A stretch of DNA of 64,000 bases from Mogibacterium sp. (GTDB taxonomy: Bacteria; Bacillota; Clostridia; Peptostreptococcales; Anaerovoracaceae). The first letter of the stretch is position 1. The number at the start of each line of letters is the position of its first letter. The stretch covers positions 14,030-78,029 of the forward strand of contig JAFRLN010000034.1 in NCBI GenBank assembly GCA_017431175.1, in the 5' to 3' direction. The position numbers and the translations under genes were made by a program. The notes beneath the pieces were generated by a model. The model ran no database searches. It was not told the origin of the DNA and was given only the letters and a program-made list of their open reading frames with translations. Shown one piece after another: positions 6,615 to 53,862 of the stretch.

Positions 6615-7634
6615 CTATCTGTTGCCGTACATTTTCTCATAGTACTGCTGGTACTCGCCGCTCACGATGTTCTTCCACCATGCTTCGTTGTCGAGATACC
6701 ACTGGATCGTCTTCTTAATGCCGTCTTCGAACTTCGTCTCAGGCAGCCATCCGAGCTCATTATGGATCTTGGTCGGATCGATAGCGTATCTCTGGTCATG
6801 GCCTTTTCTGTCTGTTACATATGTGATCAGGCTCTCCGGCTTGCCGAGCTGCGCGAGAATGATCTTGACGACTTCGATATTAGCCTTCTCGTTATGACCG
6901 CCGATGTTGTAGACTTCACCGACTCTGCCGTTTTCGAGTATGAGGTCGATCGCTCTGCAGTGGTCCTCAACATACAGCCAGTCTCTTACATTGAGTCCTT
7001 CGCCGTATACAGGCAGAGCCTTGTCCGCGAGAGCATTGGCTATCATAAGAGGGATGAGCTTCTCAGGGAACTGATAAGGCCCGTAGTTGTTGGAGCATCT
7101 GCTGATCGTGACAGGCAGACCGTATGTCCTGTGATATGCCATTACGAGCAGATCCGCGCTGGCCTTTGATGCTGAATAAGGGCTCGAAGCTGTCAGCGGC
7201 ATGGTCTCAACGAAGAAGAGATCCGGTCTGTCAAGCGGCAGGTCTCCGTAGACCTCGTCTGTGCCGACCTGGTGGAATCTCCCCACGCCATACTTGATGG
7301 AAGCGTCCATCAGTACCTGTGTTCCGAGGATATTCGTCCTGAGGAACAGTCCCGGATCCTCAATGGATCTGTCTACATGTGATTCAGCGGCGAAATTGAC
7401 GACTTTGTCGAACTTCTCTTCCGCGAAAAGCTTGTCTACGGCGTCCTTGTCGGTTATGTCGATCTTGACGAACTTAAAGTGCGGATGGTCCATCACCGGC
7501 GCGAGAGTCTCGAGATTGCCGGCGTATGTAAGTGAGTCAAGCCCGACAATATCATAGTCAGGATGAGCATCCAGCATATGAAATACGAAGTTGCTTCCTA
7601 TGAATCCGGCTGCGCCTGTTACCAATATCTTCAC
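6615..7634 (-). CDS. rfbB: dTDP-glucose 4,6-dehydratase
   Basis: 339-aa ORF with a GTG start and AAAGGAG upstream. [16 protein letters not shown]..., YSASKASAD (YxxxK), a typical RmlB C-terminus, and WWKNI near the end. Confidence 0.92.
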
Positions 7635-7797: not shown

Positions 7798-9039
7798 TTA
7801 CCGCATATATCCGTGACCGGTAAGTATAAGGTAGAAATGATACAGCTGGCAGATGACTGATGCTGCCAGGATCAGCCCGATCACAGCCATGGCGGCTGTC
7901 CTCTTGCTCCGGCTGCTGAAGAAATCCCTGTTATAGTACATCTCCAGGAAGACTGCGCACGCTGTCAGCGTAATGAAGTAACAGCCGAACATCCTTCCCC
8001 ACGAGAAGTTCCCGAAATTGGATCTCGTTCCCGTCTCGCTGATCGTCGCCCACTGCAGGGTGCCGATCACGAAGGTATACAGAGCGAACTTATACTTGGT
8101 ATCTCTGAACTTCTTCAGGTTGAACGCGAACACTGCAATAGCGAATGTGATGCCGAACAGCAGCGCCGCCCACGGGCGCTCATAATTGAGCAGTGGTCCG
8201 AGTCCGAAGACGATCTCATGCTCTTCTCCGAACTGCGTATTGTCAGCGAACTGCCTCTTGTTGAGCCATATTATATACAGCCCGCTCGGGACTACCGACA
8301 TGCCCATGATGAACATCCTGCGGAACCTGACGAGAAAACCGTCTGCTCCTTTTCTGATCAGCTCAGCGATGAACATGATCACGATCGTGAACACGAGTCC
8401 GATCGTATAGCTCGGCTTGCTCGTAGTCGCCAGGAAAGTCGTAATAAGAGTCGCGATCCACCACTTCACGCTGACGCCTTCGGTATCATACGGCATGTAC
8501 ATCCTGAGGAAGCAGACCGCAGCGATCATGGCGAACAGTGTCATAAAGTGCTGGGTCGGCGAGTGCCAGCAGAACGAGCTGAAAGACTTGCGGTAGAAAT
8601 ACTCATGGATGACCGGAACGTAAATCGGTCCGATAAAGAGCATCGCTACAGAGAATACCTGTACAGCACGCCTCGGTACGCTCTCCAGCAGTCCGTCCTC
8701 TCTCAGGAAAAACCTGATAACCGCGAAATTCGCAACAATGATAGCCGCGATCACCAGTGCCAGCATGATATTGATCTCGAGCGTGGACTGGTTGATATCG
8801 AACAGCCACTGACACAATATGCCTACCAGCCTCTCCTGAGGCTCGGTGCTCTGAGTGCGTTCCAGCGCGTAGTATCCGATATCGGACTCGTACTTGCCGT
8901 TGTAATTGACTATCATCCTGTAGAACAGTTCCAGACATACTGCAGAAACTGCCGCGATAGCTGCTATCCAGGCGAAATCATATATATTCAGGGACAGAGT
9001 GACCTCCCTGTCTCTGAGTTTTTTCCTGTTATCAAGCAT
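7798..9039 (-). CDS. Polytopic membrane protein (about 11 TM); candidate Wzy-like polymerase or small GT-C-type transferase
   Basis: 413-aa ORF with an ATG start and GAAGAGG RBS. Hydrophobic throughout, with no soluble domain and no motif I can name. Confidence 0.5.
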   Translation of the reverse strand: MLDNRKKLRDREVTLSLNIYDFAWIAAIAAVSAVCLELFYRMIVNYNGKYESDIGYYALERTQSTEPQERLVGILCQWLFDINQSTLEINIMLALVIAAIIVANFAVIRFFLREDGLLESVPRRAVQVFSVAMLFIGPIYVPVIHEYFYRKSFSSFCWHSPTQHFMTLFAMIAAVCFLRMYMPYDTEGVSVKWWIATLITTFLATTSKPSYTIGLVFTIVIMFIAELIRKGADGFLVRFRRMFIMGMSVVPSGLYIIWLNKRQFADNTQFGEEHEIVFGLGPLLNYERPWAALLFGITFAIAVFAFNLKKFRDTKYKFALYTFVIGTLQWATISETGTRSNFGNFSWGRMFGCYFITLTACAVFLEMYYNRDFFSSRSKRTAAMAVIGLILAASVICQLYHFYLILTGHGYMR

Positions 9040-9170: not shown

Positions 9171-11282
9171 ATGACAGCTTCGTCACGTGTTTCATCATTA
9201 ATCAGAGTGATCAGCCTTGCAGTTATGGCTGCAATGGTTGGTATTTCCGTGTTCATATACCATGTACACATTCCGGAGCTTGCTGTTTTCGCTTTCTTCG
9301 CGGTCTGCTACATCCAGCTTCCGGGGCTGCTGATCTCGAGGCTTCTGAAGATCCGGACCAGGCACATCTCTGAAGATCTGCTTCTTTCATTCTTTGCCGG
9401 GTGGGCTTTGATGGTTGCCCTGTATTTCCTCTGCGATCTCATCGGAAACAGACTGCTCCTGTTCATCTCAGGCCCGGTCTGTTCCGCTGCATATATCTGG
9501 CTTCTGTATAAAAAGCGCGCAGGCGCCGCTGTTCTCGGGAAACTTTCACTCAGGCGCATCCCGGCCGCGATGTACGCCGCCGTCGCGATCCTGATGACTT
9601 ATGTTTTCCTGAACTCCCAGTTCCTCTATCTGTCGCCGGAACTCTGTGATGAGGTCTTCGCCGGCATCGACAAAGTATACCAGATGGGACTGTCTATGTC
9701 ACTGACTCACGGGTATCCTCTCCAGAGCCCGTGGGTACACGGAGTCATCGAATACTATCATCTGTACACGCAGATTCTTCTTGCGATCCCTGTGATGCTC
9801 TTCGGGCTCACTCCTGACTTCCTTGTCATGTCATGCAGCCCGTATATGACGACTTATCTTGTAGGCCTTTCCTTCTATGCGACGTTCCGGCATTTCTGTT
9901 CCGGCGGCAAGAGGGCCGGCCTCTATACATTGTCTGTCATACTTTCCAACATGTTCATATCCAAGACGCACACCACGTCCTATATGTTCACGATACTGTT
10001 CGCCAACGCCAACCACGGCGGATTCGGCATCGCCGGCCTGATGGCCTGCGCGATCATGCTGGACATCTGCCTGCGTGACGAGTCCGGTGATAAACGCCGG
10101 GCTGCCCGCAGCACAGTCATGCTCACGGTTCTGGTCATGGTGCTTACAGGTATCAAGGCTCCCGTCGGGCTTGTCTTCGCAGGCGGCATCACGGGAACGT
10201 TCCTGCTGGGTCTTCTGCTCAGGGCTCCTGTGCTTAAGAAAGCCGCGCTTCCGACAGCCGCATCTGACCTGGGATTCCTCGCGACATACATGTTCCTTTT
10301 CAGCGGCGACCCGACTTCAGGCACGACGAATGACTCGCTGTTCTATTTCGGCGGAATGACCAACATCACCTGGTGGAAGGAAGACCTTATCATCGCTCTC
10401 CGTTCTGTCGGTGTTCCGGGACCAGTCCGCCTCCTGTGCATACTTGCCGTTTTCGCCATATTCTTCTTCACGATATATCTGCTGCCTTTCACTATCGGAT
10501 ACATCAGGGAGTTCATCCTTGTCGTCACGAAGAAGCATGAATTTGATTTTGCCCGTATCACCGTATACGCGGCAGCGCTCGTCGGTTTTGTGCTCATGAT
10601 GTTCCTCAGTTACGACGGGCACAGCCAGGTGTACTTCGGAACCGCTACGACGGCATTTGTGCCGCTCATTTCGTTCTGGTTCTTCGAAGACCGGGAGGAA
10701 ATAACGTCCGGGGCTGTTAAAGTCCTGTTCAGGGTTTGCTGTGTATGGTTTTTTGCTCTGATCTTCCTGACCTCCGCGACTCTGTTCATCGACATGCACG
10801 GCCTGATCCCTGCAGCCAGGTATCACACTCACCCGGAGGCTCCTTATAACCCGGGCACCAGCCTGACAAGAGATGAGTATGAAGCGACAAAATGGCTCAA
10901 AGAGAACACCCCGGAGGATGCTCTGATCGCGACACAGATGTATCTGTCCGTAGGCGTCAGCGATTTTGACTACACTGACCGCTGGGATTGCTGTCATTTC
11001 GTATACGCCGCGTATTCAGACAGGATGTTCTATCTGGAAGGTTCCGGCTTCACGCTTGAGACTTACGAGACAGACCTCCGCCTCAAAATGATAGAGACCA
11101 ACAATAAGCTCTACGATGTGAACAACGCGGAGCGCGGCGATCTTGCCCGGTCTCTCGGCATAGACTATGTAATGGTAACCAAAAAAATATTCCCGGAGAC
11201 CCCTGACCTGTCCTCGGATGATTATGAACCTGTATTCACCAACAACGATATCGTGATCTATAAAGTAAGCCAGGCTGACTGA
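9171..11282 (+). CDS. Large polytopic membrane protein with C-terminal extracytoplasmic domain; GT-C-fold (ArnT/PMT/YfhO-like) glycosyltransferase candidate
   Basis: 703-aa ORF with GGAGAA RBS. About 13 TM segments, then a soluble ~170-aa tail ending ...LARSLGIDYVMVTKKIF...PVFTNNDIVIYKV, a tail style common in ArnT/GT39-like proteins. Confidence 0.55.
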   Translation: MTASSRVSSLIRVISLAVMAAMVGISVFIYHVHIPELAVFAFFAVCYIQLPGLLISRLLKIRTRHISEDLLLSFFAGWALMVALYFLCDLIGNRLLLFISGPVCSAAYIWLLYKKRAGAAVLGKLSLRRIPAAMYAAVAILMTYVFLNSQFLYLSPELCDEVFAGIDKVYQMGLSMSLTHGYPLQSPWVHGVIEYYHLYTQILLAIPVMLFGLTPDFLVMSCSPYMTTYLVGLSFYATFRHFCSGGKRAGLYTLSVILSNMFISKTHTTSYMFTILFANANHGGFGIAGLMACAIMLDICLRDESGDKRRAARSTVMLTVLVMVLTGIKAPVGLVFAGGITGTFLLGLLLRAPVLKKAALPTAASDLGFLATYMFLFSGDPTSGTTNDSLFYFGGMTNITWWKEDLIIALRSVGVPGPVRLLCILAVFAIFFFTIYLLPFTIGYIREFILVVTKKHEFDFARITVYAAALVGFVLMMFLSYDGHSQVYFGTATTAFVPLISFWFFEDREEITSGAVKVLFRVCCVWFFALIFLTSATLFIDMHGLIPAARYHTHPEAPYNPGTSLTRDEYEATKWLKENTPEDALIATQMYLSVGVSDFDYTDRWDCCHFVYAAYSDRMFYLEGSGFTLETYETDLRLKMIETNNKLYDVNNAERGDLARSLGIDYVMVTKKIFPETPDLSSDDYEPVFTNNDIVIYKVSQAD

Positions 11283-11335: not shown

Positions 11336-13027
11336 CTATTGCTTCCTGATCACTACCCGGTAGATCCCCTGATCGGCTAACTCATCGACTTTGATGAATT
11401 CCGCTTTCTCTCCTTCCTTGCAGTACCATTTATCGTAATACTCCGTAAGTCCTTTCACTTTGAAATCTCCGAAGTAATATACGTCCGGATTATTGATGAG
11501 ATCCCTGACCGGGTTCTCGATCCCGTATGCTCTGAGCTGCTCCAGTTTATATGGCGTCATCGTGTCCCAGCCTCCTGTGTCGGTCAGATTGGCCGCGACC
11601 ACAGGCGCTTTGAGCGGCGTCATATAGGACTGCGTCTGGCTGTTGAGCACCGTCGGCATTACATAGAAGCTGTCCGGATGAGCCTGCAGATATTCTGTGA
11701 CTTCAGGCGCTTCTATGAGGCTGCTGTTGTAATTGACTCTGCTCTGAAGATAATCGAGCTGCCCCGGTATGCTCAGCGCGACAGCGAGGATCGTCACCGC
11801 GAGAACGATACTGCCTGCCGCCTTCTTTTCTGATCTGCCGCTTACCGCCGCGATATACAGGAGCCAGAAGGTTATATTGACATCGGCTATATAGATCGCT
11901 CTGTACTGGACTCTCTTCATGTAATAGACAGCAGTATACAGAACGACCGTCAGAATGCCGAGCGCCAGTATGTACATCCAGATCTTCGGTTTTCTCTCCG
12001 CAAGCAGGTACAGAACGATGAGCAGCACGAAGATGATATGCAGTCCGTTCTTGTCCATCGCGAGCACTGATTCAAGAGACCGTTTTACCGCTCTCTTGAC
12101 CGCTTTCACAACTGACTTGTCAGCTTCAGCGTAAGGACCGTTGATACTGTTGATCACTTTGAGGTTATCATACGAAGCGGCTCCGTCATAATCGAAGAAC
12201 CATCTGTCGATCAGCTCAAGGTCATTCTGGTCCAGACCCACGGCTTCATATTCTCCGATATTATCCTCGATATAGTCCAGCATCGGATAGTCTGTTACTT
12301 TGACTCTCTCCGCCTGATACTGTCTTCCGGCTTTGAGCTCAGGCGTACCCGCGTTGGCAGCGTCTGAAGCCTTGTCGAGCCCGTACGGAACGAGCATAGC
12401 GATCACAATGATCAGCACCAGCCCGATCTCCGGCAGCGGCTTTCTGCCCCCGAAGAACTCCTTTCCGTTGGTGAGCCACCACAGCAGCATGAACAGGGCG
12501 ACAAACGCTATAGACGGGAACATGCCCTTCTGCCTGTATGCCACTCCGATAAAATACAGCGCGAACGCAAGGATAAAGCATGCTGCGCGCCGTTCATGCA
12601 GGTAGGTATCCGCGATCCATATGAGGCCTGCAGTCATCAGCAGAGCGGATGTCTTGGTGAACTGCATGCAGCCATAATGATCCATGGAGTAGAACAGCAC
12701 CAGCAGCAGAGACAGGACAGACAGCAGGACTGACTCCTGTCTGTCCAGAATGACTTTGATCAAGACGGTGAAAGCGATAAAAGACATGACCAGCTGAGAG
12801 ATCATGAATATGTTGGCTGCAGGGAAGATCTTCTGTATCAGCATAAGGATCCTGCAGAGATACACACTGACGAAACCGACAAAAGGATAACCGGACGCAA
12901 TCTCCGCCGCTATCGCAAAGTCATCGTTAGTCTCATACGTTACCTCGGACAACATAAAAACGGCTGCCATTATCGCTGTATTAGCAGCCAGTGAGATGAT
13001 CCAGTTCCTGAGGCTTTTATTCTTCAT
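11336..13027 (-). CDS. Large polytopic membrane protein with C-terminal soluble domain; GT-C-fold glycosyltransferase candidate
   Basis: The track ORF runs 11336..13093 from a GTG. I prefer the ATG at 13025-13027 (MKNKSLRNWIISLAAN...). Many TM segments, with soluble segments in the middle and at the C-terminus. The start choice is uncertain. Confidence 0.5.
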   Translation of the reverse strand: MKNKSLRNWIISLAANTAIMAAVFMLSEVTYETNDDFAIAAEIASGYPFVGFVSVYLCRILMLIQKIFPAANIFMISQLVMSFIAFTVLIKVILDRQESVLLSVLSLLLVLFYSMDHYGCMQFTKTSALLMTAGLIWIADTYLHERRAACFILAFALYFIGVAYRQKGMFPSIAFVALFMLLWWLTNGKEFFGGRKPLPEIGLVLIIVIAMLVPYGLDKASDAANAGTPELKAGRQYQAERVKVTDYPMLDYIEDNIGEYEAVGLDQNDLELIDRWFFDYDGAASYDNLKVINSINGPYAEADKSVVKAVKRAVKRSLESVLAMDKNGLHIIFVLLIVLYLLAERKPKIWMYILALGILTVVLYTAVYYMKRVQYRAIYIADVNITFWLLYIAAVSGRSEKKAAGSIVLAVTILAVALSIPGQLDYLQSRVNYNSSLIEAPEVTEYLQAHPDSFYVMPTVLNSQTQSYMTPLKAPVVAANLTDTGGWDTMTPYKLEQLRAYGIENPVRDLINNPDVYYFGDFKVKGLTEYYDKWYCKEGEKAEFIKVDELADQGIYRVVIRKQ

Positions 13028-16300: not shown

Positions 16301-16330
16301 AAAATAAAAAGGCTCATGAGAGCCTTTTTG
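16301..16330 (-). terminator. Bidirectional rho-independent terminator
   Basis: AAAAAGGCTC-ATGA-GAGCCTTTTT, a hairpin flanked by A- and T-runs, downstream of the ATP-grasp gene. Confidence 0.75.
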
Positions 16331-16412: not shown

Positions 16413-17525
16413 TTAATCCACGTGCCTGATGACATAGCATCCTGCCCTGGTGGAGCTGTTCGTCGCGCTGTTCAGGAGGTCCAGATCCAGGTCTACGACG
16501 CGGATGATCCTCTCCGGTTCATGTTCCTGCATATAGTGGAATTTGTCAAGGTCTTCCTGATCGAGGATAAAGACGCTTTCTACAGGGAAAGGTTCCACGA
16601 TCGGTGTGAAATCCGGGGCCTCGCCGCACGCGATCTGTATGACCATACCGACATAGTCATATCCCGTCGAGTACTTGACCAGATCAGTCCCGATGCAGTC
16701 GCCGGACATTCTCTGTCCGACTTCAATGAGCCTGATATTGCCCTCGTCATCTATCTTGATCTCTGCGTTTCCTGCTCCGTACTTGATCTCAAGGCTGTCG
16801 AAAGCATGATCGACGACCTGTCTGATCTTCTCTTTTACCTCGTCGCTGACAGGCGCCGGCTGATAATGTCCGGTCTCGATGAACCGCGGCGCGCCGGTCG
16901 TGTATTTGAAAGTGACTGCCAGGAGCGTATGCTTACCTTCATAGGATATATACTCTACGCTGTATTCCTGACCTTCCACGAACTCTTCGACAACAGCTTT
17001 CTGCTCGAAGCTCTGTTCGAACGCCTCGCTCAGAGCCTCCGGCAGTTCTTCCGGGGATTCGATCTTGTGAACACCTCTGCTTCCGCTGCGGTCTGTCGGC
17101 TTCACTATGGCAGGGTAAGGAATGTCTATCTGCGACATGTCTGTCTCCGGTGTCACAAGAATGCTTTTCGGGGACGGGTCACCATGCTCTTCGAAGGCCT
17201 TTCTCATAAGATGCTTATTGGTGCTCTTGTAAGTGCTCTCCATGGAGTTGGCAGTAAGCCCCATCTTGTTGGCAACATAGTTGCATGTGATGAGCGCGAC
17301 TTCCGAAGCGATACTGCAGATACCGTCGATCCCTATCTCTCTGCACTTTTCCAGAATAGCGTCTCCGTCTCTCGTGCTGATCGGATAGAAATGGTCAGCG
17401 GCGGTCTCTCCGACGTCTCCGCATTCCCACGCGAAAACATGAGTGACGTATCCGAGCTCTTTCGCCCTCTCTATCAGCGGGAGCTGATGATAGCTCGCTC
17501 CCAGAATAGCAACGTTCTTTTTCAT
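16413..17525 (-). CDS. ATP-grasp family ligase (cassette A)
   Basis: 370-aa ORF. Rossmann-like start MKKNVAILGASYHQLPLIERAKELG. ATP-grasp core YPAIVKPTDRSGSRGVHKI, VVEEFVEGQEYSVE, AGNAEIKIDDEGNIRLIEVGQRMSG. Confidence 0.8.
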   Translation of the reverse strand: MKKNVAILGASYHQLPLIERAKELGYVTHVFAWECGDVGETAADHFYPISTRDGDAILEKCREIGIDGICSIASEVALITCNYVANKMGLTANSMESTYKSTNKHLMRKAFEEHGDPSPKSILVTPETDMSQIDIPYPAIVKPTDRSGSRGVHKIESPEELPEALSEAFEQSFEQKAVVEEFVEGQEYSVEYISYEGKHTLLAVTFKYTTGAPRFIETGHYQPAPVSDEVKEKIRQVVDHAFDSLEIKYGAGNAEIKIDDEGNIRLIEVGQRMSGDCIGTDLVKYSTGYDYVGMVIQIACGEAPDFTPIVEPFPVESVFILDQEDLDKFHYMQEHEPERIIRVVDLDLDLLNSATNSSTRAGCYVIRHVD

Positions 17526-17548: not shown

Positions 17549-17884
17549 TTACAATGTATAGACCAGTATGCCGGTGATGATGATCAGATTGCCGACAAGC
17601 TGAAGTCCTGTGAATTTTTCTTTGAGCAGAAGATATGAGAATATCATGACGTTAACGTAGCTGAACGCGTCGATGATGGACGCGTATTTGATCTCGACCT
17701 CTGTGTAGGCGTAGGTGTTGACCATCAGCACCGTAAAGGCGATACCGTACGCGAGTATGACTCTCCAGTTGAGATACTCGTATATCCAGCTCTTGTGTTC
17801 TATCTGCGCGCTCTTCTTCATCAGTACCTGAGAGATCGCCGTAAAGAAGGTAGTCGCGAACAATATCAGCATATATGGATGCAT
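17549..17884 (-). CDS. Small 4-TM DMT/EamA-type protein, ArnE/ArnF-like flippase subunit (cassette A, subunit 2)
   Basis: 111 aa with 4 hydrophobic segments. 67/111 identical (gapless hand alignment) to the 36495..36830 product. Confidence 0.65.
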   Translation of the reverse strand: MHPYMLILFATTFFTAISQVLMKKSAQIEHKSWIYEYLNWRVILAYGIAFTVLMVNTYAYTEVEIKYASIIDAFSYVNVMIFSYLLLKEKFTGLQLVGNLIIITGILVYTL

Positions 17885-17888
17885 TGTC

Positions 17889-18269
17889 TTACTCCTTGCT
17901 TTGTTTCTCTCCGAGAGAGACGACGATTACTCCGAACATTACGATCAGCATTCCCAGTATGTTCCTCGGCGTCAGGCTTTCGGAAAAAATGAAGACAGCC
18001 CACAGCTGGCTCCACACCAGGTACATGCTCCTGTTGGCATAAGCTACATGCAGGTCAAAATGCTTGATGATCTTCTGCCAGCAGAACGCGTAGAAGACAC
18101 ACACGAAAAGCATCAGGATTATGAATATGTATATCCTGATACTGCGTAATCCGTATTCATTATATGATATAGCCGCAAATTTGCCCAGTACTTCCGTCAT
18201 CGAGAATACCAGGATGCACAGATGCAGTGCTATAAAATATTTGATTCTTCCCATGCGATATGATGTCAT
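17889..18269 (-). CDS. Small 4-TM DMT/EamA-type protein, ArnE/ArnF-like flippase subunit (cassette A, subunit 1)
   Basis: 126 aa with 4 hydrophobic segments. Paralogous to 36827..37201 (shared ...YAF.WQK.IK..DLHV.YANRS.YL.W.QLWAV..F.E.LT..N..G...V..GV..VSL). Confidence 0.65.
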   Translation of the reverse strand: MTSYRMGRIKYFIALHLCILVFSMTEVLGKFAAISYNEYGLRSIRIYIFIILMLFVCVFYAFCWQKIIKHFDLHVAYANRSMYLVWSQLWAVFIFSESLTPRNILGMLIVMFGVIVVSLGEKQSKE

Positions 18270-18295: not shown

Positions 18296-19306
18296 TTATT
18301 CTCTGTTGATCTGATGAGGATCCGCAGCGCCGCCTGCCGGCTGTGCGCTGTGATCAGGATCCGGACGCGCGGCTGCCTGCTTGTCCAGATTGAGCGCCTC
18401 CCGGATGATGAACTGAGGCGTCTTGTTCAGGATCAGGATCGCTTTGCCGAGATACTCTCCTACTACGCCGAGCACCATCAGTACCGCTCCGAACAGCAGT
18501 GTCATCAGGCAGAGGGTCGATGCCCAGCCCATCGGGATGATCGGGTCCGTGACTTTCTTATAGATGAGCCAGAACGTGACCAGGACTCCGAAAGTCGCAG
18601 ATGCCGCTCCTATGAAGAACGATATTCTCAGCGGCACGACCGAATAGTTCCAGTAAGAGAGCCAAAGCCTGACGAGCTTTCTGAAGGTGTAACCCGACTT
18701 GCCGGATTCCCTCTTGTGATGCTCTACCTCGACAGCGCCGAAATTATGCGTGACCTGATAGAAGATCGCGTCCAGCACAGGATTGAAGCTGCTGTACTTG
18801 ATGACCTGGTCTCTGACATCTCTTGTGATGATCCAGAAATTGGTCGCTACGATCTCCTTCGGCATATCGAGCAGGATCTTGGACGTGAGCCTGTTGAATC
18901 TGCTTGAAAGCGTCTTGAAAAATGAATTCTTGGAGTGCGGATAGGTGCCGTATACGACATCGTAGCCGCCCTGCTCTATCGTCTCGATCAGCTTGAACAC
19001 CTGGGACGGATGCGTCTGCATGTCATCGTCCATACCCATGATGTACTCGCCTGACGCGTAGTTGAGCCCTGCCATCTGCGCGTTGTGCTGACCGAACCCT
19101 CTCATGAGGTTGATGCCTATAACATTAGGATACTTGTCGCACAGAGATCTGATCACGCCAAAAGTACCGTCCGTCGATCCGTCATTGATCAGAACGAACT
19201 CGCACTCATAGCCTTCGCGCTGTTCAAACTGCTCCATGACAGCCAGCACTTCCTTGCCGATCGTATCTTCAGAATAATAGCATGGTATTACGAATGATAT
19301 CAGCAT
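18296..19306 (-). CDS. Polyprenyl-phosphate glycosyltransferase, GT2 (GtrB/ArnC/CsbB-like) with two C-terminal TM helices (cassette A)
   Basis: The track ORF begins at a TTG (19312). The ATG at 19306 with GGGAGA RBS gives MLISFVIPCYYSE..., colinear with paralogue B. Motifs NDGSTDGT, MDDDMQTHP, C-terminal TM pair and VVGEYLGK. Confidence 0.85.
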   Translation of the reverse strand: MLISFVIPCYYSEDTIGKEVLAVMEQFEQREGYECEFVLINDGSTDGTFGVIRSLCDKYPNVIGINLMRGFGQHNAQMAGLNYASGEYIMGMDDDMQTHPSQVFKLIETIEQGGYDVVYGTYPHSKNSFFKTLSSRFNRLTSKILLDMPKEIVATNFWIITRDVRDQVIKYSSFNPVLDAIFYQVTHNFGAVEVEHHKRESGKSGYTFRKLVRLWLSYWNYSVVPLRISFFIGAASATFGVLVTFWLIYKKVTDPIIPMGWASTLCLMTLLFGAVLMVLGVVGEYLGKAILILNKTPQFIIREALNLDKQAAARPDPDHSAQPAGGAADPHQINRE

Positions 19307-26518: not shown

Positions 26519-27511
26519 ATGAATTATTCAATAGTCATACCATGTTACAGATCATCGCATACCATCAGAAGCGTTGTCGAAGAGACGATTGCTGAGATGG
26601 ACCGTCTCGGCAGGGACGGATACGAGTTCATCCTTGTCGACGATTTCTCGCCTGATGACGGCGAGACCGTCCGCGAGCTGCAGGCTCTGGCGGATCAGTA
26701 TTCATGTGTTACAGCAATAGCCCTGGCGCACAATGTAGGTCAACATAACGCTCTCATCTGCGGGCTCAATTACGCGTCCGGGAACATCATCATTTTCATG
26801 GATGATGACATGCAGACCCACCCGTCGCAGCTCGACAAGATCATCAACGGTCTTGATGAAGACCACGATGTAGTATACGGGTATTATCCGGATAAGAAGC
26901 ATTCAGGCTTCCGTAATTTCGGGTCCTGGTTCACTCATATGAGCGTACGCATCCTCATCGGCAAGCCGAAAGACATGAAAACTTCGAGTTATGTCGCGAT
27001 GAAGAAGTATGTCCGTGACAGTATCATCAAATATCCTGCTCACTACACTCAAATGCAGGGACTGATCCTGCGTACCGTATCCCCGGCACGTATCGCGAGT
27101 GTACCTATCCAGCATTTTGACAGAGCATACGGTGAGTCAGGCTATACACTGAAGAAACTTCTGAGTCTCTGGTCCAACATCGCTGGCTTCTCCATCGTCC
27201 CGCTCCGTTTCGCCCAGAGGTTCGGTGTATTTACAACTCTGTGCGGAGTTCTCGGTCTGATATGGCTGCTGGTACGCAAGCTCATCAGCAAGACCAAGAT
27301 CCTCGGCTGGACATCCACAATGATGACCATCATCATCTTCTCCGGCATCATACTTATCACGCTTGGTGTAGTCGGTGAGTACGTCGGACGGATGTTCCTG
27401 ACGATGGGCAACTACCCGCAATACGTAGTCCGTGAAGTATATGGAAACAACATTGACTGCGAATCAAAATCAGAGAACAAAAAAAGTAGAAACGTCGCTC
27501 AAGAAGAGTAA
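26519..27511 (+). CDS. Polyprenyl-phosphate glycosyltransferase, GT2 (GtrB/ArnC/CsbB-like), third and most divergent paralogue
   Basis: 330 aa. MNYSIVIPCYRS..., VDDFSPDDG, FMDDDMQTHPSQ, two C-terminal TM helices and VVGEYVGR. Confidence 0.85.
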   Translation: MNYSIVIPCYRSSHTIRSVVEETIAEMDRLGRDGYEFILVDDFSPDDGETVRELQALADQYSCVTAIALAHNVGQHNALICGLNYASGNIIIFMDDDMQTHPSQLDKIINGLDEDHDVVYGYYPDKKHSGFRNFGSWFTHMSVRILIGKPKDMKTSSYVAMKKYVRDSIIKYPAHYTQMQGLILRTVSPARIASVPIQHFDRAYGESGYTLKKLLSLWSNIAGFSIVPLRFAQRFGVFTTLCGVLGLIWLLVRKLISKTKILGWTSTMMTIIIFSGIILITLGVVGEYVGRMFLTMGNYPQYVVREVYGNNIDCESKSENKKSRNVAQEE

Positions 27512-31162: not shown

Positions 31163-31189
31163 CTCCAGTCACTTCCATTTTTGAAAATA

Positions 31190-31222
31190 AGAAAAGGTCA
31201 GGACATCGTTCCCGGCCTTTTC
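31190..31222 (-). terminator. Imperfect hairpin + U-rich tract between the adenylating-enzyme and MATE genes (possible intra-operon attenuator)
   Basis: Minus-strand AAGGCCGGG-(8 nt)-CCTGACCTT (one mismatch, one G-U pair) followed by TTCTTATTTTC. Confidence 0.35.
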
Positions 31223-31233
31223 CGCGTTGCTGT

Positions 31234-32541: not shown

Positions 32542-32556
32542 GTTATCTGACCTCCG

Positions 32557-33699
32557 TTATTTTACAGTTCTTCCTGTCCTGCGGATCACATATCCGCACT
32601 TCTCTATATATCCGTTGATCCTGAGCACTCTGTCGCCGTCATCGTAATAGTAGCAGACATGCTCAGCGCCTTCCGTATCGAACTCGCCGCGCGCAAAACG
32701 CGTATTCGGCTCTTTGCTCATGAACGCCAAGCTGTACTCTTCCGCAGGCATCTCATACTTCCCGTCCAGGACAGAGGCACCCTCAAGCAGATGCCTGAAG
32801 CACGCGTCCAGAAGATCCGCGCCGCAATAATGTCTGATCAGGTTCCACATGTGGCAGCCGTCAAGTCTCGGTGTGACTTCAAGCAGTACAGGATCAGTGC
32901 CGTTCCTGAGTTTGATCTGGAAATACGCCGGTCCGTCGGTGATCCCGATCCTTGATGCCACGCGGGCAGCAAGGTCTTCACACTTCATCTTCGCCTCTGC
33001 GTCAGCAAAAGACGAAGGGACCCGGTGCTCTTTGATGATCCCGCCGGGATACTCGTCGAACGCGTATCTGTCGCTGACGAGAGCGAACTTCAGCGCTCCG
33101 TCCTGCATATACGCGTTGACCGATACCTCCGGCCCGTCGATGAATTCTTCAACGATGACCTTGCCTTCGAACGAATAACCGAGAGAAGCCGCGAAGTGCT
33201 CTCTGATATCGTCCGCGGACTCCACCTTAAAGCATCCTCTCTGGCCCTGCGAGTCGACAGGTTTCATCATACCCGGGAAGTCCGTATACTCAAGAGCTTC
33301 TTCGAGGGTGCGCGCGGTTATGAATGACGCGTTGCCTTCAAAGCCCTGTCCGAGAGCCTCTCTCAGCTTGCCCTTGGAATGGCAGGTCTCTGCAGTTTCA
33401 TACGAAATAAAATGTGGCAGACCGAGCATCTCGCTGACCTTCATGACGGTCGGCATAGCAAGATCAGAGCCGACGGAATAGATCGCCCGCACTCCGTATC
33501 TTCGCGCGAGGTCTGCGACGCCCTCCATACTCTTGATATCGACCTGTTCGAAATAGTCAAGATGCGGAATGCCGCAGTCTACAGTCGTGTAGCTGCATCC
33601 GACGACCTTGTAACCATGCGCCTTGCAGTATTCGATCGCGTCGATCTGCGCGTTGCCGGCGCCGAGTATGAGGATTCTTTTTTCTTCGTTCATTTTCAT
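32557..33699 (-). CDS. ATP-grasp family ligase (third copy)
   Basis: 380 aa. KRILILGAGNAQIDAIEYCKAHG, FPGMMKPVDSQGQRGCFKV, VIVEEFIDGPEVSVNAY, PVLLEVTPRLDG. The start overlaps the upstream stop (ATGA). Confidence 0.8.
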   Translation of the reverse strand: MKMNEEKRILILGAGNAQIDAIEYCKAHGYKVVGCSYTTVDCGIPHLDYFEQVDIKSMEGVADLARRYGVRAIYSVGSDLAMPTVMKVSEMLGLPHFISYETAETCHSKGKLREALGQGFEGNASFITARTLEEALEYTDFPGMMKPVDSQGQRGCFKVESADDIREHFAASLGYSFEGKVIVEEFIDGPEVSVNAYMQDGALKFALVSDRYAFDEYPGGIIKEHRVPSSFADAEAKMKCEDLAARVASRIGITDGPAYFQIKLRNGTDPVLLEVTPRLDGCHMWNLIRHYCGADLLDACFRHLLEGASVLDGKYEMPAEEYSLAFMSKEPNTRFARGEFDTEGAEHVCYYYDDGDRVLRINGYIEKCGYVIRRTGRTVK

Positions 33700-36494: not shown

Positions 36495-36830
36495 CTATAT
36501 CGTATAGATCAGAACGCCCGCGATAATCAGCAGGTTGCCGATCAGCTGTCCTCTGTTGAAATGCTCCTTAAGAAGCACGAACGACAGCACCATTACGAAA
36601 ACGTATGTAAAAGTATCGATCACCGGACCGAATCTCATGTCTACCTTGGTGTAGGCATATGTGTTGACGAAGAGCACGCCGAAAGAGATCGCGTAAGCGG
36701 TCAGTACTCTCCAGTTCAGGTATTCATAGATCCAGGACTTGTGCTCCATCCTGGCACTCTGCTTGAGCAGTATCTGGGATCCCGCGGAGAAGAAAGTCGC
36801 CGCGAACAGAAGGAAAATGTAGAAATTCAT
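36495..36830 (-). CDS. Small 4-TM DMT/EamA-type protein, ArnE/ArnF-like flippase subunit (cassette B, subunit 2)
   Basis: The track ORF extends to 37085, but the ATG at 36830 overlaps the upstream stop (ATGA) and gives a 111-aa protein colinear with 17549..17884 (67/111 identical). Confidence 0.65.
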   Translation of the reverse strand: MNFYIFLLFAATFFSAGSQILLKQSARMEHKSWIYEYLNWRVLTAYAISFGVLFVNTYAYTKVDMRFGPVIDTFTYVFVMVLSFVLLKEHFNRGQLIGNLLIIAGVLIYTI

Positions 36831-37201
36831 TCCGCCGCCTCCTCTCCGTACGGGGTGTTGAGAGAGACGGTAACGACTCCCGCAAGCACTACCGCAAGTC
36901 CGACGAGGTTCTTGGCTGTCAGGTGCTCTCCGAATAAAAGCACAGCCCAAAGCTGTCCCCATATGAGATAGACGCTCCTGTTGGCGTATCCCACATGAAG
37001 ATCTACTTTCTTGATTACCTTCTGCCAGAAAAACGCGTATACTACGCAGACCATCAGCATCAGCATTGAGAATATATACAGCCATGGACTGTAGAATCCC
37101 GCGCTGTTATATGTGTTGGCCGCTGCCTTGGCGAAAACGCTGGTGAAGGAGAACACCATTACGCAGAGGTGGAGACGCAGATAATCACCTAATCTCTCCA
37201 T
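36827..37201 (-). CDS. Small 4-TM DMT/EamA-type protein, ArnE/ArnF-like flippase subunit (cassette B, subunit 1)
   Basis: 124 aa with 4 hydrophobic segments. Paralogue of 17889..18269. Confidence 0.65.
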   Translation of the reverse strand: MERLGDYLRLHLCVMVFSFTSVFAKAAANTYNSAGFYSPWLYIFSMLMLMVCVVYAFFWQKVIKKVDLHVGYANRSVYLIWGQLWAVLLFGEHLTAKNLVGLAVVLAGVVTVSLNTPYGEEAAE

Positions 37202-38400
37202 AATTCCTCCAGTGTCCTTCCATCAACGAACATAGCACTGTATACACGATCCTTGATCCTGTCAAATTCATCCTCATCATCGACAGCCGCGATGACATGT
37301 CCGATTCTCGTCGTACCGTTGTACATCTTCTCGATGCTGTCTCCGACACCGTAGTCGAGCTTGACTGTGATGCCTTCTCCGCGGATGGCATCGAGCTTCT
37401 CCTCGTCTATATAAGAGATCGTGCCGTCAACCGGACTCATGAGGAGCTTTGCCATGCATGGCACTCTGACGTCGCCCTCCGGCATCACGACCGGTCTTCC
37501 GAGCGCGTTGTTGATCATCTGCTCGTAGAAGTCGAAGCCGTAGTAAATGGATATCAGTTCCGGTATGCAGGTCGCTCCGGCGCGGCCTCCCATCTCGATG
37601 ATATAGACTTCATCCCCGTCAACGAAGACGTCTGAATTGAATGCCGTGTTATCGATCCCGAGGGAGCGTGTCGCGAGCGTGATCTGCTTCGCGATCTCAT
37701 CATACACTTTGTCTGAGCACTTATACGGGAACGCGTGTCCCGCAGGCATAGTGGCACCTCTGAACTTGTAGGTGAACTTCTCATGAGGGGCAAGGAGGAT
37801 CAGTTCACCATTCTCCACCATTCCGTCAACGCCGATCTCATGACCGCCGAGCTTGCTCTCGATGAGAACATAGTCTTTGCGGGAATATCTGACCGCTTCC
37901 TCATATGCCGTTTTCATCTCGTCACGGGTGTCGATGACATTGATGCCGCGGCTGCCGGAGCTGTCTACGCATTTTACGACGACAGGATATCCGATCTGTT
38001 CTGCGGCGGCATACGCCTCCTCAAGGGATGTGACGCGGACATATCTCGACGCAGCGACGTTGCCTTCAGCGAAAGCTTCTTTCATCTGAAACTTGTCGCA
38101 CGCCTTATCCGCCGCGATCTCGCTGATACCGGACAGCCCCATCTGGTCGTTGACATAACCGATCGTCGCGACAGCGACATCCGTCCCTGAGGTGCAGATC
38201 CCGTTGACGCCTTCCTTGCGGCAGATCTCCAGGATAGCTTCCTTGTCTACTGTATTGATGTAGTATGCCTTATCGGCATAATCAAAACCGGGATATGCTC
38301 CCGGCATACTTGATACTATAGTATAGAGACCCATACGCTTGGCCGTTTTGATCAGCGGTACCTGATATACGCTGGCGCCAAGTATCATGATCTTGTCCAT
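37189..38400 (-). CDS. ATP-grasp family ligase (cassette B)
   Basis: The track ORF starts at 38448 inside the upstream gene. The ATG at 38400 (GAGAGG RBS) gives MDKIMILGASVYQVPLIKTAKRMG. YPVVVKCVDSSGSRGINVI, YVLIESKLGGHEIGVDG, VYIIEMGGRAGA. Confidence 0.8.
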   Translation of the reverse strand: MDKIMILGASVYQVPLIKTAKRMGLYTIVSSMPGAYPGFDYADKAYYINTVDKEAILEICRKEGVNGICTSGTDVAVATIGYVNDQMGLSGISEIAADKACDKFQMKEAFAEGNVAASRYVRVTSLEEAYAAAEQIGYPVVVKCVDSSGSRGINVIDTRDEMKTAYEEAVRYSRKDYVLIESKLGGHEIGVDGMVENGELILLAPHEKFTYKFRGATMPAGHAFPYKCSDKVYDEIAKQITLATRSLGIDNTAFNSDVFVDGDEVYIIEMGGRAGATCIPELISIYYGFDFYEQMINNALGRPVVMPEGDVRVPCMAKLLMSPVDGTISYIDEEKLDAIRGEGITVKLDYGVGDSIEKMYNGTTRIGHVIAAVDDEDEFDRIKDRVYSAMFVDGRTLEELWRD

Positions 38401-38404
38401 AAAA

Positions 38405-39340
38405 CTACCTCTCAGATTCATTGATGCCAACAGTATCTCTGATGACATATTGCGGTGTTTTGTTAAGTATTAGTATTATCTTGCCCAGATACTCCCCTAC
38501 GATTCCGAGTACCATCAGCACAACTCCGAACAGCAGTGTTATGACGCACATCGTGGATGACCATCCTACAGGGAGGTTCGGATATATGATCTTGTTGATA
38601 ATGATCAGTATTGTGAATACCAGTCCGGCTATGAATGAGAAGATGCCGACGAAGAAGGATATCCTCAGCGGTATCACGGAGAAGTTCCAGTACGCCATCC
38701 ACAGCTTGAGAAGCTTCTTGAATGTGTAGCCGGAATGTCCGTATTCTCTCTTGAAGTGCTCGACCGGAACCATTCCGATATTATTGGTCACTCTGTAGAA
38801 CACGGCATCGACATAAGGATTGAACGTATCGAACTTGATCACCTCATCTCTGACAGACTTCGTAATGATCCAGAAGTTGCTGGACTCTATCTCCTTAGGT
38901 CTGCTGAGCATTACTCTGGAGGTCTTTCTGTTGATGATGCTGGTCAGATTTTTGATCGGTCCGTTCTTGACTTCCGGATAGATCCCGTATACAAGGTCAT
39001 AGCCTTCTTCGATCTTGTGGATGAGCTTGAAGATCTGCGACGGATGCGTCTGCATATCGTCATCCATTCCCAGGATATAGTCGCCCTTCGTATAGTTCAG
39101 CGCTGCCATGATCGCGTTATGCTGGCCGAAGTTCCTCATCAGGTTGACTCCGCGGACGTTAGGGTATTTCCTGTTCAGCGCGACGATTTCATTGAAAGTG
39201 CCGTCTGTTGAGCCGTCATTGACCAGGACGAATTCGCATTCATATCCTTCGTTGTTATTAAATTCTTCTGTAACCATGTCGACGACCTTGCCAATCGTCT
39301 TCTCAGAGTAGTAACATGGTATTATTATTGATATAAGCAT
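38405..39340 (-). CDS. Polyprenyl-phosphate glycosyltransferase, GT2 (GtrB/ArnC/CsbB-like) (cassette B)
   Basis: 311 aa with AAGGAG RBS. 73 of the first 100 residues are identical to the cassette A GT2 (hand count). NDGSTDGT, MDDDMQTHPSQ, C-terminal TM pair and IVGEYLGK. Confidence 0.85.
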   Translation of the reverse strand: MLISIIIPCYYSEKTIGKVVDMVTEEFNNNEGYECEFVLVNDGSTDGTFNEIVALNRKYPNVRGVNLMRNFGQHNAIMAALNYTKGDYILGMDDDMQTHPSQIFKLIHKIEEGYDLVYGIYPEVKNGPIKNLTSIINRKTSRVMLSRPKEIESSNFWIITKSVRDEVIKFDTFNPYVDAVFYRVTNNIGMVPVEHFKREYGHSGYTFKKLLKLWMAYWNFSVIPLRISFFVGIFSFIAGLVFTILIIINKIIYPNLPVGWSSTMCVITLLFGVVLMVLGIVGEYLGKIILILNKTPQYVIRDTVGINESER

Positions 39341-39388: not shown

Positions 39389-39447
39389 CGCAACTGCGCA
39401 GCATCTACAAGAAGACATAATCCATGCAGCAGAAAGGACGTATCACG

Positions 39448-40404
39448 ATGAAGGAAATCGGCGGATACATGGAGCTTGAACATATGCGCGGATCCGAGCT
39501 TTATCCGGATCTTCACAGGCTCAATCTGGGCCGTACTGCTTTTGTATGGCTCCTCCAGAACATACCACACAACAGAGTATTCATTCCTGAATACATATGC
39601 AGATCAGTGCCTGACAGCGCCGCGTCCGCGGGATTCGATGTAGTCAGATACCGTCTTGACGAGCACCTGCAGCCTCTATGGGGCAGCGAGGGGGCTCCCG
39701 GCGACGATGACATCCTGTACCTCGTCAATTTCTACGGGCAGCTCAGTCCCGAAGAGATCCGGTCATGGCGGAGCCGCCTACCGAAAGTCTTCGTCGATAA
39801 CGCGCAGGCCTTCTACGACGCTCCCCTCGAAGGAGTGCATACGATCTATACTGTCAGAAAGTACTTCGGTCTGAGTGACGGCGCGTACGTTGCTTCAGAT
39901 ATCGACGCATCTGCTGATGATCTTCCTGATGACCATTCCGGAAACAGGATCAGGCATCTCACCGGCAGGCTCGAAGAGAACGCCGGCGCGTATTACAGGG
40001 AGATGCTTGACGTATCCGACACCTTCTCTGCTGAGATCCCGAGACAGATGTCACCACTGACTCACAACCTGCTGAAGGGTATCGATTATGAATATGTCAG
40101 GACACAGAGACGTTCCAATTACAGGACCCTCAGCCGCCTCCTTCCGGGAAGCAACCCGTTCACGCAGCGTATGCCTGAATGTCCTTTTGCTTATCCTTAC
40201 TATCACGGGGACGGCGTAGCACTCAGGAAATATCTGGCCTCGAAGAAGATATTCGTACCGACCAACTGGACTTATCTCATCCAGACAATGCCGGAGGACA
40301 GTCTCGAGTATGACTGGTCTGCCAACGTTCTTCCTCTGCCTGTAGATCAGCGCTACGGTGATGAGGAGATGAAGATCATCGCTGACGCAGTACTCAGCTT
40401 CTGA
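39448..40404 (+). CDS. Divergent DegT/DnrJ/EryC1-like PLP-dependent enzyme (sugar aminotransferase fold), function uncertain
   Basis: The track ORF starts at 39424. ATG at 39448 gives MKEIGGYMELE.... The layout resembles the DegT fold: LGRTAFVWLL, VDNAQAF, TVRKYFGLSDGAY (candidate PLP Lys), RRSNYRTLSRLL, LPLPVDQRYGDEEMKIIADAV. Confidence 0.45.
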   Translation: MKEIGGYMELEHMRGSELYPDLHRLNLGRTAFVWLLQNIPHNRVFIPEYICRSVPDSAASAGFDVVRYRLDEHLQPLWGSEGAPGDDDILYLVNFYGQLSPEEIRSWRSRLPKVFVDNAQAFYDAPLEGVHTIYTVRKYFGLSDGAYVASDIDASADDLPDDHSGNRIRHLTGRLEENAGAYYREMLDVSDTFSAEIPRQMSPLTHNLLKGIDYEYVRTQRRSNYRTLSRLLPGSNPFTQRMPECPFAYPYYHGDGVALRKYLASKKIFVPTNWTYLIQTMPEDSLEYDWSANVLPLPVDQRYGDEEMKIIADAVLSF

Positions 40405-43221: not shown

Positions 43222-43230
43222 GATCCCCTC

Positions 43231-44655: not shown

Positions 44656-44711
44656 CCCAGTCTCCCGGTTAAGGCCGATCACGAAAATTGTCCGATAGTT
44701 TAATCTGCAAC

Positions 44712-53846: not shown

Positions 53847-53862
53847 CTGTGTATTCTGACTC

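Follow-up and report, generated by a model that had tools for sequence, protein, structure and literature searches.

Two four-gene cassettes with an integral ATP-grasp ligase, one canonical and one apparently mosaic, in a probable surface-glycopolymer locus of Mogibacterium

A 64,000-nucleotide stretch of DNA from a rumen Mogibacterium sp. (assembly GCA_017431175.1, contig JAFRLN010000034.1, positions 14,030 to 78,029 of the forward strand; here called the window, with positions counted from its first letter) carries the same four gene types twice, all on the minus strand: a family 2 glycosyltransferase (GT2), an ATP-grasp ligase and two small membrane proteins. As judged from protein families and gene order, the module is probably a variant of lipid-carrier glycan decoration with an integral ATP-grasp ligase, and the window holds one canonical copy (cassette B) and one mosaic copy (cassette A). 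Three-component glycosylation by way of a lipid carrier has been described with plain sugars in Bacilli and with 4-amino-4-deoxy-L-arabinose (Ara4N) in Gram-negative bacteria. In the literature searched we found no description of an ATP-grasp ligase built into a lipid-carrier glycosylation system, nor of the GT2/ATP-grasp/small-pair module itself; the 'lipocone' survey mentions ATP-grasp only in an unrelated operon (PMC12419801).

Two copies of a conserved quartet

In cassette B the GT2 gene (311 amino acids (aa), 38405..39340) is followed by the ligase gene (403 aa, 37189..38400) and by the genes of the larger (124 aa, 36827..37201) and the smaller small subunit (111 aa, 36495..36830). The GT2 is of the ArnC/GtrB/PgfS polyprenyl-phosphate glycosyltransferase type, with a GT-A domain and two C-terminal transmembrane (TM) helices; the ligase belongs to what we call the B-type subfamily and has a LAL_C2-like C-terminus, while both small subunits are membrane proteins resembling ArnE or half of an EamA protein. 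A preliminary description of this DNA, made from the letters alone, had reported that the quartet recurs and that its genes overlap, and both statements hold: all four gene types are found in both cassettes, and the ATGA at 36827-36830 (124-aa and 111-aa genes) as well as the 13-nucleotide overlap at 37189-37201 (ligase and 124-aa genes) are present in the sequence. The latter overlap is called also in Parablautia, in Mogibacterium and in another metagenome-assembled genome (MAG). The open reading frame (ORF) of the ligase could be extended to 38448, yet its orthologues have 403 aa; the 196-aa ORF listed for the smaller subunit is over-extended, its orthologues having 111 aa.

Cassette A consists of a GT2 gene of the B-type cassette lineage (336 aa, 18296..19306), the larger (126 aa, 17889..18269) and the smaller small subunit (111 aa, 17549..17884), and, in last place, a ligase gene of the A-type subfamily (370 aa, 16413..17525). 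It is closed by a terminator-like hairpin on the same strand (16306..16329; a 10-bp stem followed by a T run). The gene order thus differs as had been stated, the ligase being second in B and last in A. The GT2 proteins of the two cassettes are 63% identical (197/311, BLASTP E 4e-152), and the earlier hand count of 73 identical positions among the first 100 residues was reproduced. The 126-aa and 124-aa proteins are paralogues with 54% identity (65/121, E 4e-48), and the two 111-aa proteins share 67 of 111 residues in an ungapped alignment (60%, E 1e-52), again as counted before. The ligases are indeed much more diverged than the other three pairs, with 32-35% identity (E 1e-45) as opposed to 54-63%. 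At the DNA level the identity is 66-68% over the GT2 and small genes and is not detectable over the ligases.

Synonymous sites between the cassettes are saturated (proportion of synonymous differences, pS, 0.68-0.74). Together with a DNA identity of at most 66-68%, this rules out a recent duplication or an assembly artefact, and the preliminary description's proviso that the cassettes might be recent identical duplications does not apply. Cassettes A and B are best read as old paralogues of one module. Since the ratio of non-synonymous to synonymous substitution (dN/dS) between saturated paralogues is uninformative, the eight genes were compared with their orthologues, and dN/dS was 0.00-0.08 throughout (GT2 B 0.03, ligase B 0.05, GT2 A 0.04, 126-aa protein 0.07, ligase A 0.05), i.e. 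strong purifying selection. The 111-aa protein of cassette A is 100% identical to its orthologue in locus L006, although pS is 0.47. The idea that one cassette is degenerate, also raised earlier, was rejected, as every ORF is intact and no dN/dS exceeds 0.08.

The distribution of the module was studied in 133 loci (labelled L001 and so on) that were collected by six homologue-contig look-ups, a GTDB genome scan and a metagenome scan, and annotated by tblastn with the window proteins. The order GT2-ligase-small-small occurs in 58 loci with B-type ligases (counting the window's cassette B and two duplicate contigs, L003 and L005) and in 17 with A-type ligases, the loci coming from Anaerovoracaceae/Mogibacterium, Lachnospiraceae, Oscillospiraceae and Olsenella. 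A GT2 is found no more than 5 kb from the B-type ligase in 87/92 cases (95%) and the small pair in 66/92 (72%), and the two small proteins are always paired. The order GT2-small-small-ligase is seen only in the window, in its close relative L006 and in the fragment L089. The closest genome, the rumen MAG RUG13158 (L009), has the whole B operon, and L006 has the whole cassette A neighbourhood. The quartet is a conserved unit and cassette B is its canonical form. The suggestion that the four proteins act together is strengthened by an order that is kept in about 75 loci of many genera. The description of cassette B as the rearranged copy has to be turned around: its order is the common one, and that of cassette A is rare and derived.

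The A-type ligases have a usual cassette of their own, [RmlB]-WecE-GT2-(SDR)-ligase-small-small (SDR, short-chain dehydrogenase/reductase), and the GT2 and small proteins of this cassette share only about 30% of their residues with those of the window. To the ligases of this WecE/DegT-linked lineage the cassette A ligase has a median identity of 48% (maximum 64%), versus 28% to B-type ligases, whereas the GT2, 126-aa and 111-aa proteins of cassette A have median identities of 58, 54 and 62% to B-type cassettes and of 28, 32 and 34% to the other lineage. Neighbour-joining trees of 88 complete cassettes with 100 bootstraps give two incongruent splits. In the ligase tree all A-type ligases, including that of the window, are separated from the rest (100/100); in the tree of the concatenated GT2 and small proteins it is the A-type cassettes without the window and L006 that split off (100/100). 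By these comparisons cassette A appears as a mosaic, a B-lineage trio to which the ligase of another cassette lineage was appended at the 3' end. The internal ligase of the trio would have been lost and replaced, so that the ligase was apparently swapped and did not diverge in place. Such an origin explains both the rearranged order and the seemingly ligase-focused divergence. The cassette B proteins are nearer to orthologues from other genera (GT2 up to 84% identity) than to cassette A, and therefore either the duplication of the trio is old or the second trio was horizontally acquired.

The preliminary description had instead proposed a duplication followed by divergence focused on the ligase. 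In its local form, i.e. duplication within this lineage, rearrangement, and then fast divergence of the ligase alone, we regard this account as very improbable. It would fit the contrast between the three more similar pairs and the ligases, and the position of both cassettes in one locus at similar GC content (0.51 and 0.50), but it does not fit a cassette A ligase that reaches 64% identity to a lineage with otherwise dissimilar partner proteins, two incongruent splits with full bootstrap support, cassette B proteins far closer to orthologues in other genera than to cassette A, or a ligase dN/dS as low as that of the other genes. The ligases come from two old and separately widespread subfamilies. 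This is consistent with the earlier suggestion that each cassette handles a different acyl group or sugar, and cassettes A and B would deliver differently acylated or different sugars. If the mosaic reading is true, cassette A is a clean natural case of module swapping in a glycan-tailoring pathway.

Protein families and the proposed pathway

We propose, with somewhat more confidence than doubt, that each cassette supplies one half of an Arn-like lipid-carrier glycan decoration pathway, namely the cytoplasmic steps and the flipping. In the first step RmlB and an aminotransferase of the WecE/DegT family would, by family membership, form dTDP-4-amino-4,6-dideoxyhexose. In the second the ATP-grasp ligase would N-acylate the sugar amine with a carboxylic acid, most likely an amino acid, a step that would replace the ArnA-dependent N-formylation. 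The GT2 would then load the modified sugar onto undecaprenyl phosphate (Und-P), as its strong full-length homology suggests, and the small pair, for which homology and obligate pairing point to a heterodimer, would flip the Und-P-sugar. Finally, a GT-C enzyme, for which the window offers two candidates of predicted fold, would transfer the sugar to a teichoic-acid-type wall polymer or to a surface protein.

The GT2s are the best defined component. Both match Pfam PF00535 above the gathering score (E 5e-26 for GT2 B, 2e-27 for GT2 A), and the acidic DxD-type motif GMDDDMQTHPSQ is conserved in the three GT2 paralogues of the window. Among the NCBIfam models, PgfS scores best with both (E 5e-46 and 5e-43); GT2 B matches PgfS and also ArnC (E 2e-36) over the full length, in both cases under the equivalog cut-off. 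In the PDB, GT2 B finds ArnC (9hwj, E 3e-33, residues 3-305 against 10-315) and GtrB (5ekp, E 4e-30, full length), and the profile of the GT2 family aligns with E. coli ArnC over 306 columns (hhalign probability 100%, E 5e-53). The hydrophobic TM helices of GT2 B lie at residues 230-248 and 264-282. Taken together, these similarities let us infer that the GT2s are polyprenyl-phosphate glycosyltransferases of the ArnC/GtrB type. The third ArnC-like GT2 of the window (330 aa, 26519..27511, plus strand) also matches PF00535 and has two C-terminal TM helices. It is 38-40% identical to the other two (E 3e-71 and 5e-82), is 92% conserved in L006, and has no small pair or ligase adjoining. This gene, and a third ATP-grasp gene described below, had been missed in the preliminary description.

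Fold and catalytic signature mark the cassette ligases as probable ATP-grasp carboxylate-amine ligases. ATP-grasp_4 is matched by both above its gathering score of 27 bits (E 1.5e-25 for A, 1.8e-11 for B), the cassette B ligase also matches CPSase_L_D2, Dala_Dala_lig_C and LAL_C2, and no variation is seen in the Lys, Glu, Arg and Gly-rich-loop columns among the three window ligases and 12 homologues. The best PDB match is 4dim for both (E 1e-54 for B, 3e-27 for A), followed by PurT, BacD and L-amino-acid ligases (LAL) for cassette B and by the L-amino-acid ligase 3vot (E 9e-25) for cassette A. The ligases stay below the LAL equivalog level, with 48-52 bits against a cut-off of 850 for BacD and 30-48 against 840 for DdaF. 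Word-filtered searches, in each of which 8000 candidates were scored at a threshold of E 1e-10, returned more than 1295 homologues for the cassette B ligase and more than 6407 in a second search, so the module appears common in dominant gut and rumen families. The two ligases bring up large, separate groups of homologues, of which the nearest members are 60-89% identical; the homologues span Lachnospiraceae (including Blautia and Fusicatenibacter), Oscillospiraceae and Anaerovoracaceae and, where they are named at all, are called only 'ATP-grasp domain-containing protein' or 'biotin carboxylase'.

The third ATP-grasp ligase of the window (380 aa, 32557..33699, minus strand) matches Pfam ATP-grasp_4, is 24-27% identical to the other two, and is tightly packed with its neighbours in the same direction as cassette B. 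There is also a recurrent module without the small pair, which consists of a GT2, an ATP-grasp protein about 45% identical to the cassette B ligase, and a PaaK-like protein (L076, L078, L080, L082, L084, L088, L053 and L079). In L053 and L079 it stands in tandem right after a complete B-type quartet.

The two small proteins are related to ArnE, EamA and SMR proteins. Pfam EamA is matched by the 124-aa protein (E 6e-5) and by the 111-aa protein of cassette B (E 1e-9), and NCBIfam ArnE by the 124-aa (E 1.6e-4) and 126-aa proteins (E 5e-7), the latter matching ArnF as well (E 2e-5). At the profile level, E. coli ArnE is found by the larger-subunit family (hhalign probability 93.7%, E 2e-7) and by the smaller-subunit family (91.8%, E 7e-7, 99 columns), and the two families are homologous to each other (99.8%). 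A PDB search with the 111-aa protein gave no match.

One could also imagine that the ligase acts outside glycan chemistry, e.g. on a peptide or a peptidoglycan side chain in the manner of D-aspartate ligase or L-amino-acid ligases, with the EamA-like pair exporting a small molecule and the GT2 being merely co-regulated. Its best characterised relatives are indeed L-amino-acid ligases, BacD and Ddl, the EamA and SMR families include small-molecule transporters, and a YkuD L,D-transpeptidase gene (15205-16275, minus strand) follows cassette A both in the window and in L006. However, the YkuD gene is cut off by the terminator-like hairpin and has its own strong promoter-like site (16275-16246, minus strand, 11/12 match with TG), and elsewhere such a gene is near the ligase in only 3/92 B-type and 1/45 A-type loci. 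The ligase gene, on the other hand, is flanked in dozens of genera by the GT2 and the small pair, its reading frame overlapping those of its neighbours, and it accompanies sugar aminotransferases even where the GT2 is missing. We consider a role outside glycan chemistry improbable, and return to the lipid-carrier pathway.

As to the sugar, the window encodes a WecE-type dTDP-4-amino-4,6-dideoxyhexose transaminase (5429..6559, minus strand; NCBIfam NF008687, 620 bits against a cut-off of 375) and an RmlB dTDP-glucose 4,6-dehydratase (6615..7634, minus strand; TIGR01181, 491 bits against 365). Because both are at the equivalog level, the window can be expected to make dTDP-4-amino-4,6-dideoxyhexose. 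Homologues of the window WecE (53-70% identity) adjoin the ligase in many loci; a WecE-like gene is within 5 kb in 24/45 A-type and 22/92 B-type cases, and the WecE-ligase pair is kept without the GT2 and the small pair in L008 (a Wzx-type polysaccharide locus), L090 and L128. This association points to the amine of a nucleotide sugar as the nucleophile of the ligase. A further candidate is a 326-aa protein encoded divergently from cassette B (39424..40404, plus strand), a probable distant DegT-like pyridoxal phosphate (PLP) enzyme. It has no Pfam, NCBIfam or PDB sequence match, but it aligns colinearly with WecE/DegT over 289 columns (hhalign E 0.0015) with K146 at the PLP lysine. In 12 loci a homologue stands beside a B-type ligase; L019 and L025 have it on the same strand, directly upstream of the GT2. 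We speculate that the 326-aa protein may provide the amination for cassette B. Among the relatives of the window it occupies the neighbourhood that elsewhere holds a PLP enzyme of the desulfhydrase family.

No formyltransferase or polysaccharide-deacetylase domain was found in the Pfam scans of window ORFs of at least 150 aa, i.e. ArnA and ArnD were not found. A deacetylase gene that follows some Lachnospiraceae cassettes was considered as an ArnD-like deformylase and rejected. It is PdaA-like, with an N-terminal extension and 271 bits on the spore PdaA model, has no ArnD match, is not present in the window, and was treated as a neighbour.

Two polytopic membrane proteins of the window were recognised as GT-C proteins only through structure prediction. 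The first (703 aa, 9171..11282, plus strand; AlphaFold2 predicted local distance difference test, pLDDT, 93.1) is a candidate extracytoplasmic transferase. The ten best Foldseek matches of its model in the PDB are all GT-C proteins (E 3e-8 to 1.5e-4, TM-score up to 0.54), among them STT3 (3e-8), AglB, PglB (3e-5), AftA and ArnT (5e-5). Homologues adjoin B-type cassettes in L002, L011, L013 and L060, and its distant relatives include one GT87 match, which is too thin to be used alone. The second (563 aa, 11336..13027, minus strand; pLDDT 92.9) probably has a GT-C fold too, as its four best Foldseek matches, ALG12, DPY19, Pmt4 and STT3, have probabilities of 0.96-1.0. A loop that follows its first helix carries the conserved motif ETNDD, and the protein is 100% identical to one of a Mogibacterium sp. 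MAG. The interval between WecE/RmlB and cassette A holds both genes, at a distance of 3.3-7 kb from the cassette. We regard their products as candidate GT-C transferases of the system, the pairing of either with a particular cassette being putative.

A third polytopic protein with about 8 hydrophobic segments (413 aa, 7798..9039, minus strand) is syntenic with the cassettes, and its homologues directly follow the 111-aa gene in L002, L003 and L011 (Mogibacterium/Anaerovoracaceae); it could be a third transferase, a ligase or a polymerase. Pfam, NCBIfam and PDB searches by phmmer and profile gave nothing for the three polytopic proteins, and a comparison of the membrane-protein families with E. 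coli ArnT by hhalign was negative as well.

The acceptor could be surface proteins, O-glycosylated as in the Pgf system of Streptococcus mutans, instead of a teichoic-acid-type polymer. Among the NCBIfam models PgfS fits both GT2s best, the 703-aa protein comes closest in fold to oligosaccharyltransferases, and the window is rich in large Flg_new/fn3/SH3/CHAP surface proteins, one of them directly upstream of cassette A. These proteins are possible glycosylation targets. On the other hand, the PgfS score of 157 bits is far under the equivalog cut-off of 500, similarity to the GT-C fold says nothing on the class of acceptor, and the locus is dominated by genes of the TagO, TagF and TagGH types (a TagO-like GT4, four TagF-like genes and a TagGH-like ABC transporter). 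Overall we find a protein acceptor unlikely.

Several observations weigh against the lipid-carrier pathway as proposed. Firstly, none of the comparisons with the Arn proteins reaches the equivalog level: the GT2s have 126 and 113 bits on ArnC against a cut-off of 529, the small pair has 21.8-30 bits on ArnE against 92, and the sole ArnF match, that of the 126-aa protein, has 25.2 bits against 99. Secondly, to our knowledge the donors of the GT2s characterised in this family are UDP- or GDP-sugars and not dTDP-sugars. Thirdly, only 24% of the B-type ligases have a WecE-like gene within 5 kb, and in 47/92 B-type loci the gene directly upstream of the GT2 encodes a PLP enzyme of the D-cysteine desulfhydrase/ACC deaminase/CuyA family (L001, L004, L015-L018, L020 and others, with Lachnospiraceae-type cassettes), which the proposed pathway does not explain. 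Fourthly, no GT-C-like gene was seen within 10 kb in the Lachnospiraceae loci, and the fold matches of the 563-aa protein are marginal (E 1.6e-3 to 3e-2, TM-score 0.39-0.46). Lastly, the acid and amine substrates of both ligases are ones that we infer, and the ATP-grasp partner of a GT2 in Cj1438, Cj1438C, activates a sugar carboxylate and does not acylate an amine (PMC11800379).

A more specific and more tentative version, which we put forward as a speculation that is rather doubtful at present, is that the quartet represents a widespread, undescribed and Dlt-independent route by which gut and rumen Clostridia put aminoacyl (charged or zwitterionic) groups on wall polymers. The ligase would aminoacylate a nucleoside-diphosphate-4-amino-6-deoxyhexose and so take over the committing and masking role of Arn N-formylation, after which the sugar would pass to Und-P, the ArnEF-like flippase and dedicated GT-C enzymes; ligase swaps between cassette lineages, as proposed for cassette A, would diversify the surface chemistry. 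If the lipid-carrier pathway as proposed above is true, it stands for a new class of N-acyl or aminoacyl amino-sugar surface decoration that is delivered from outside the membrane, with likely relevance to phage receptors, immune recognition and cationic-peptide resistance in commensals. It would also give a function to a large protein family now annotated only as 'ATP-grasp domain-containing protein'.

Comparison with known systems

It is instructive to compare the module with the Arn system (PmrHFIJKLM; ArnB, ArnC, ArnA, ArnD, ArnT, ArnE, ArnF), which places L-Ara4N on lipid A. Both have a DegT-family aminotransferase that leads to a nucleotide-linked 4-amino sugar, a GT2 of the ArnC type that ends in two TM helices (the hhalign match with E 5e-53), a pair of small, mutually homologous ArnE-related proteins with four TM segments, and a GT-C transferase, since the model of the 703-aa protein finds ArnT among other folds. 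Acylation of the amine ahead of lipid loading would be a further common feature, this step being proposed in the case of the window module. The differences are equally clear. ArnA, with its formyltransferase and decarboxylase, and ArnD were not found in the Pfam scans of the window, and the ATP-grasp ligase stands at the position of N-acylation. The precursor would be dTDP-4-amino-4,6-dideoxyhexose as opposed to UDP-L-Ara4N. The host of the window is Gram-positive and has no lipid A, and the components are far under the Arn equivalog cut-offs.

The scheme of a GT2 that forms a C55-P-sugar, a flippase and a GT-C enzyme is also shared with CsbB/GtcA/YfhO, GtlA/GtlB, GacI/J/K/L and PgfS/PgfM. These Gram-positive multi-component systems use a flippase of the GtrA family (GtcA) or of the Wzx type, and unmodified glucose, galactose or N-acetylglucosamine. 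In the window, two EamA halves make up the candidate flippase, and the ATP-grasp ligase is integral and translationally coupled. The Gram-positive systems decorate lipoteichoic acid, wall teichoic acid, wall polysaccharide or proteins (PMC8035078, PMC5836110).

Similarities to the three-component pentofuranose systems can be seen as well. These consist of a polyprenyl-phosphoribose synthase, a small flippase and a GT-C protein. As proposed for the window module, they add one sugar outside the cytoplasm, taking it from a polyprenyl-phosphate donor and relying on a small candidate flippase and on a GT-C enzyme (PMC11127046). The ligases of the window, for their part, share the ATP-grasp fold and the catalytic signature with L-amino-acid ligases, PurT and the structural-genomics protein 4dim of Anaerococcus prevotii; 3vot and BacD match too, as does an LAL_C2-like C-terminal domain. 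In the pentofuranose systems the donor is reportedly made by an enzyme of the phosphoribosyl-transferase type and not by an ArnC-like GT2, and no ATP-grasp ligase is said to take part. The context of the L-amino-acid ligases and PurT is dipeptide antibiotic or purine biosynthesis, unlike that of the window ligases, and we know of none of these proteins, 4dim included, that acts on a sugar. The depositor of 4dim named it GAR synthetase, an activity for which it is not known to have been tested.

A precedent for the coupling of a GT2 to amide formation by an ATP-grasp enzyme in surface glycan biosynthesis is Cj1438 of Campylobacter jejuni HS:2, a GT2 fused to a TupA-like ATP-grasp amidoligase (PMC11800379). 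It differs from the window module in that Cj1438N is described as a polymerising GT2 and not a polyprenyl-phosphate monosaccharide synthase, its ATP-grasp partner activates the carboxylate of glucuronic acid (GlcA), and there is no flippase pair. Cj1438 leads to a variant of the pathway in which the ATP-grasp ligase would activate the carboxylate of a sugar (a uronic acid) and amidate it with an amino acid or another amine, the lipid-carrier path remaining the same. An amide on the C6 carboxylate of GlcA is documented for such a GT2/ATP-grasp pair (PMC11800379), and the PLP enzyme upstream of the GT2 in 47/92 B-type loci could supply the amine or the amino acid. Nevertheless, no UDP-glucose dehydrogenase or other uronic-acid gene was found in the Pfam scan of the window ORFs of at least 150 aa or among the called genes of the loci examined, the recurrent WecE-type partner yields an amine and not an acid, and the window ligases match proteins of the L-amino-acid-ligase, PurT and 4dim types, whereas Cj1438C is described as TupA-like. 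We think it unlikely that the ligase works on a sugar acid, and retain acylation of the sugar amine as the preferred reading.

The wider locus

The region downstream of cassette B contains, on the minus strand and as recognised by Pfam and NCBIfam, genes for a membrane-bound O-acyltransferase (MBOAT, 34859-36472), a DltD/SGNH-like protein (33696-34859), a PaaK-like adenylating enzyme (31234-32541), a MATE/Wzx-like protein (29771-31162) and an SDR (28839-29861). The MBOAT gene starts after a gap of 22 nucleotides behind the 111-aa gene, with no terminator-like site between cassette B and this gene. From 28839 to 36472 the gene order is the same in L009, and the region resembles a Dlt-type set for O-acylation, with an ATP-grasp and a PaaK-like enzyme in place of DltA. 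A second MBOAT (483 aa) and an AlgX-like SGNH protein (393 aa) are encoded at 42040-44682 (minus strand), at a distance of 3 kb from cassette B, which brings the membrane O-acyltransferase pairs of the locus to two.

The surface protein directly upstream of cassette A (2289 aa, 19529-26398, minus strand) combines CHAP, SH3, Flg_new and fn3 domains; its translation, judged by eye, also shows a repetitive stretch rich in Ala and Glu close to the C-terminus. Further Flg_new/fn3 surface proteins are encoded at 3873-5423, 40513-41925 and 50210-51304. At the right end of the window (56517-63928, minus strand) there are genes for a polysialyltransferase/GT52-like protein (719 aa), a 904-aa protein with a weak Capsule_synth match (Pfam E 0.006, under the gathering score) and a GT8-TagF fusion (857 aa), which suggest a further unusual glycopolymer. 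A gene for a LexA-like repressor with a helix-turn-helix and a Peptidase_S24 domain (28092-28730, plus strand) lies between the cassette regions, opposite to most of the locus, and genes for a MoxR-type AAA ATPase and a DUF58 protein (52707-54822, minus strand) lie between the TagGH-like ABC transporter and the surface-protein genes.

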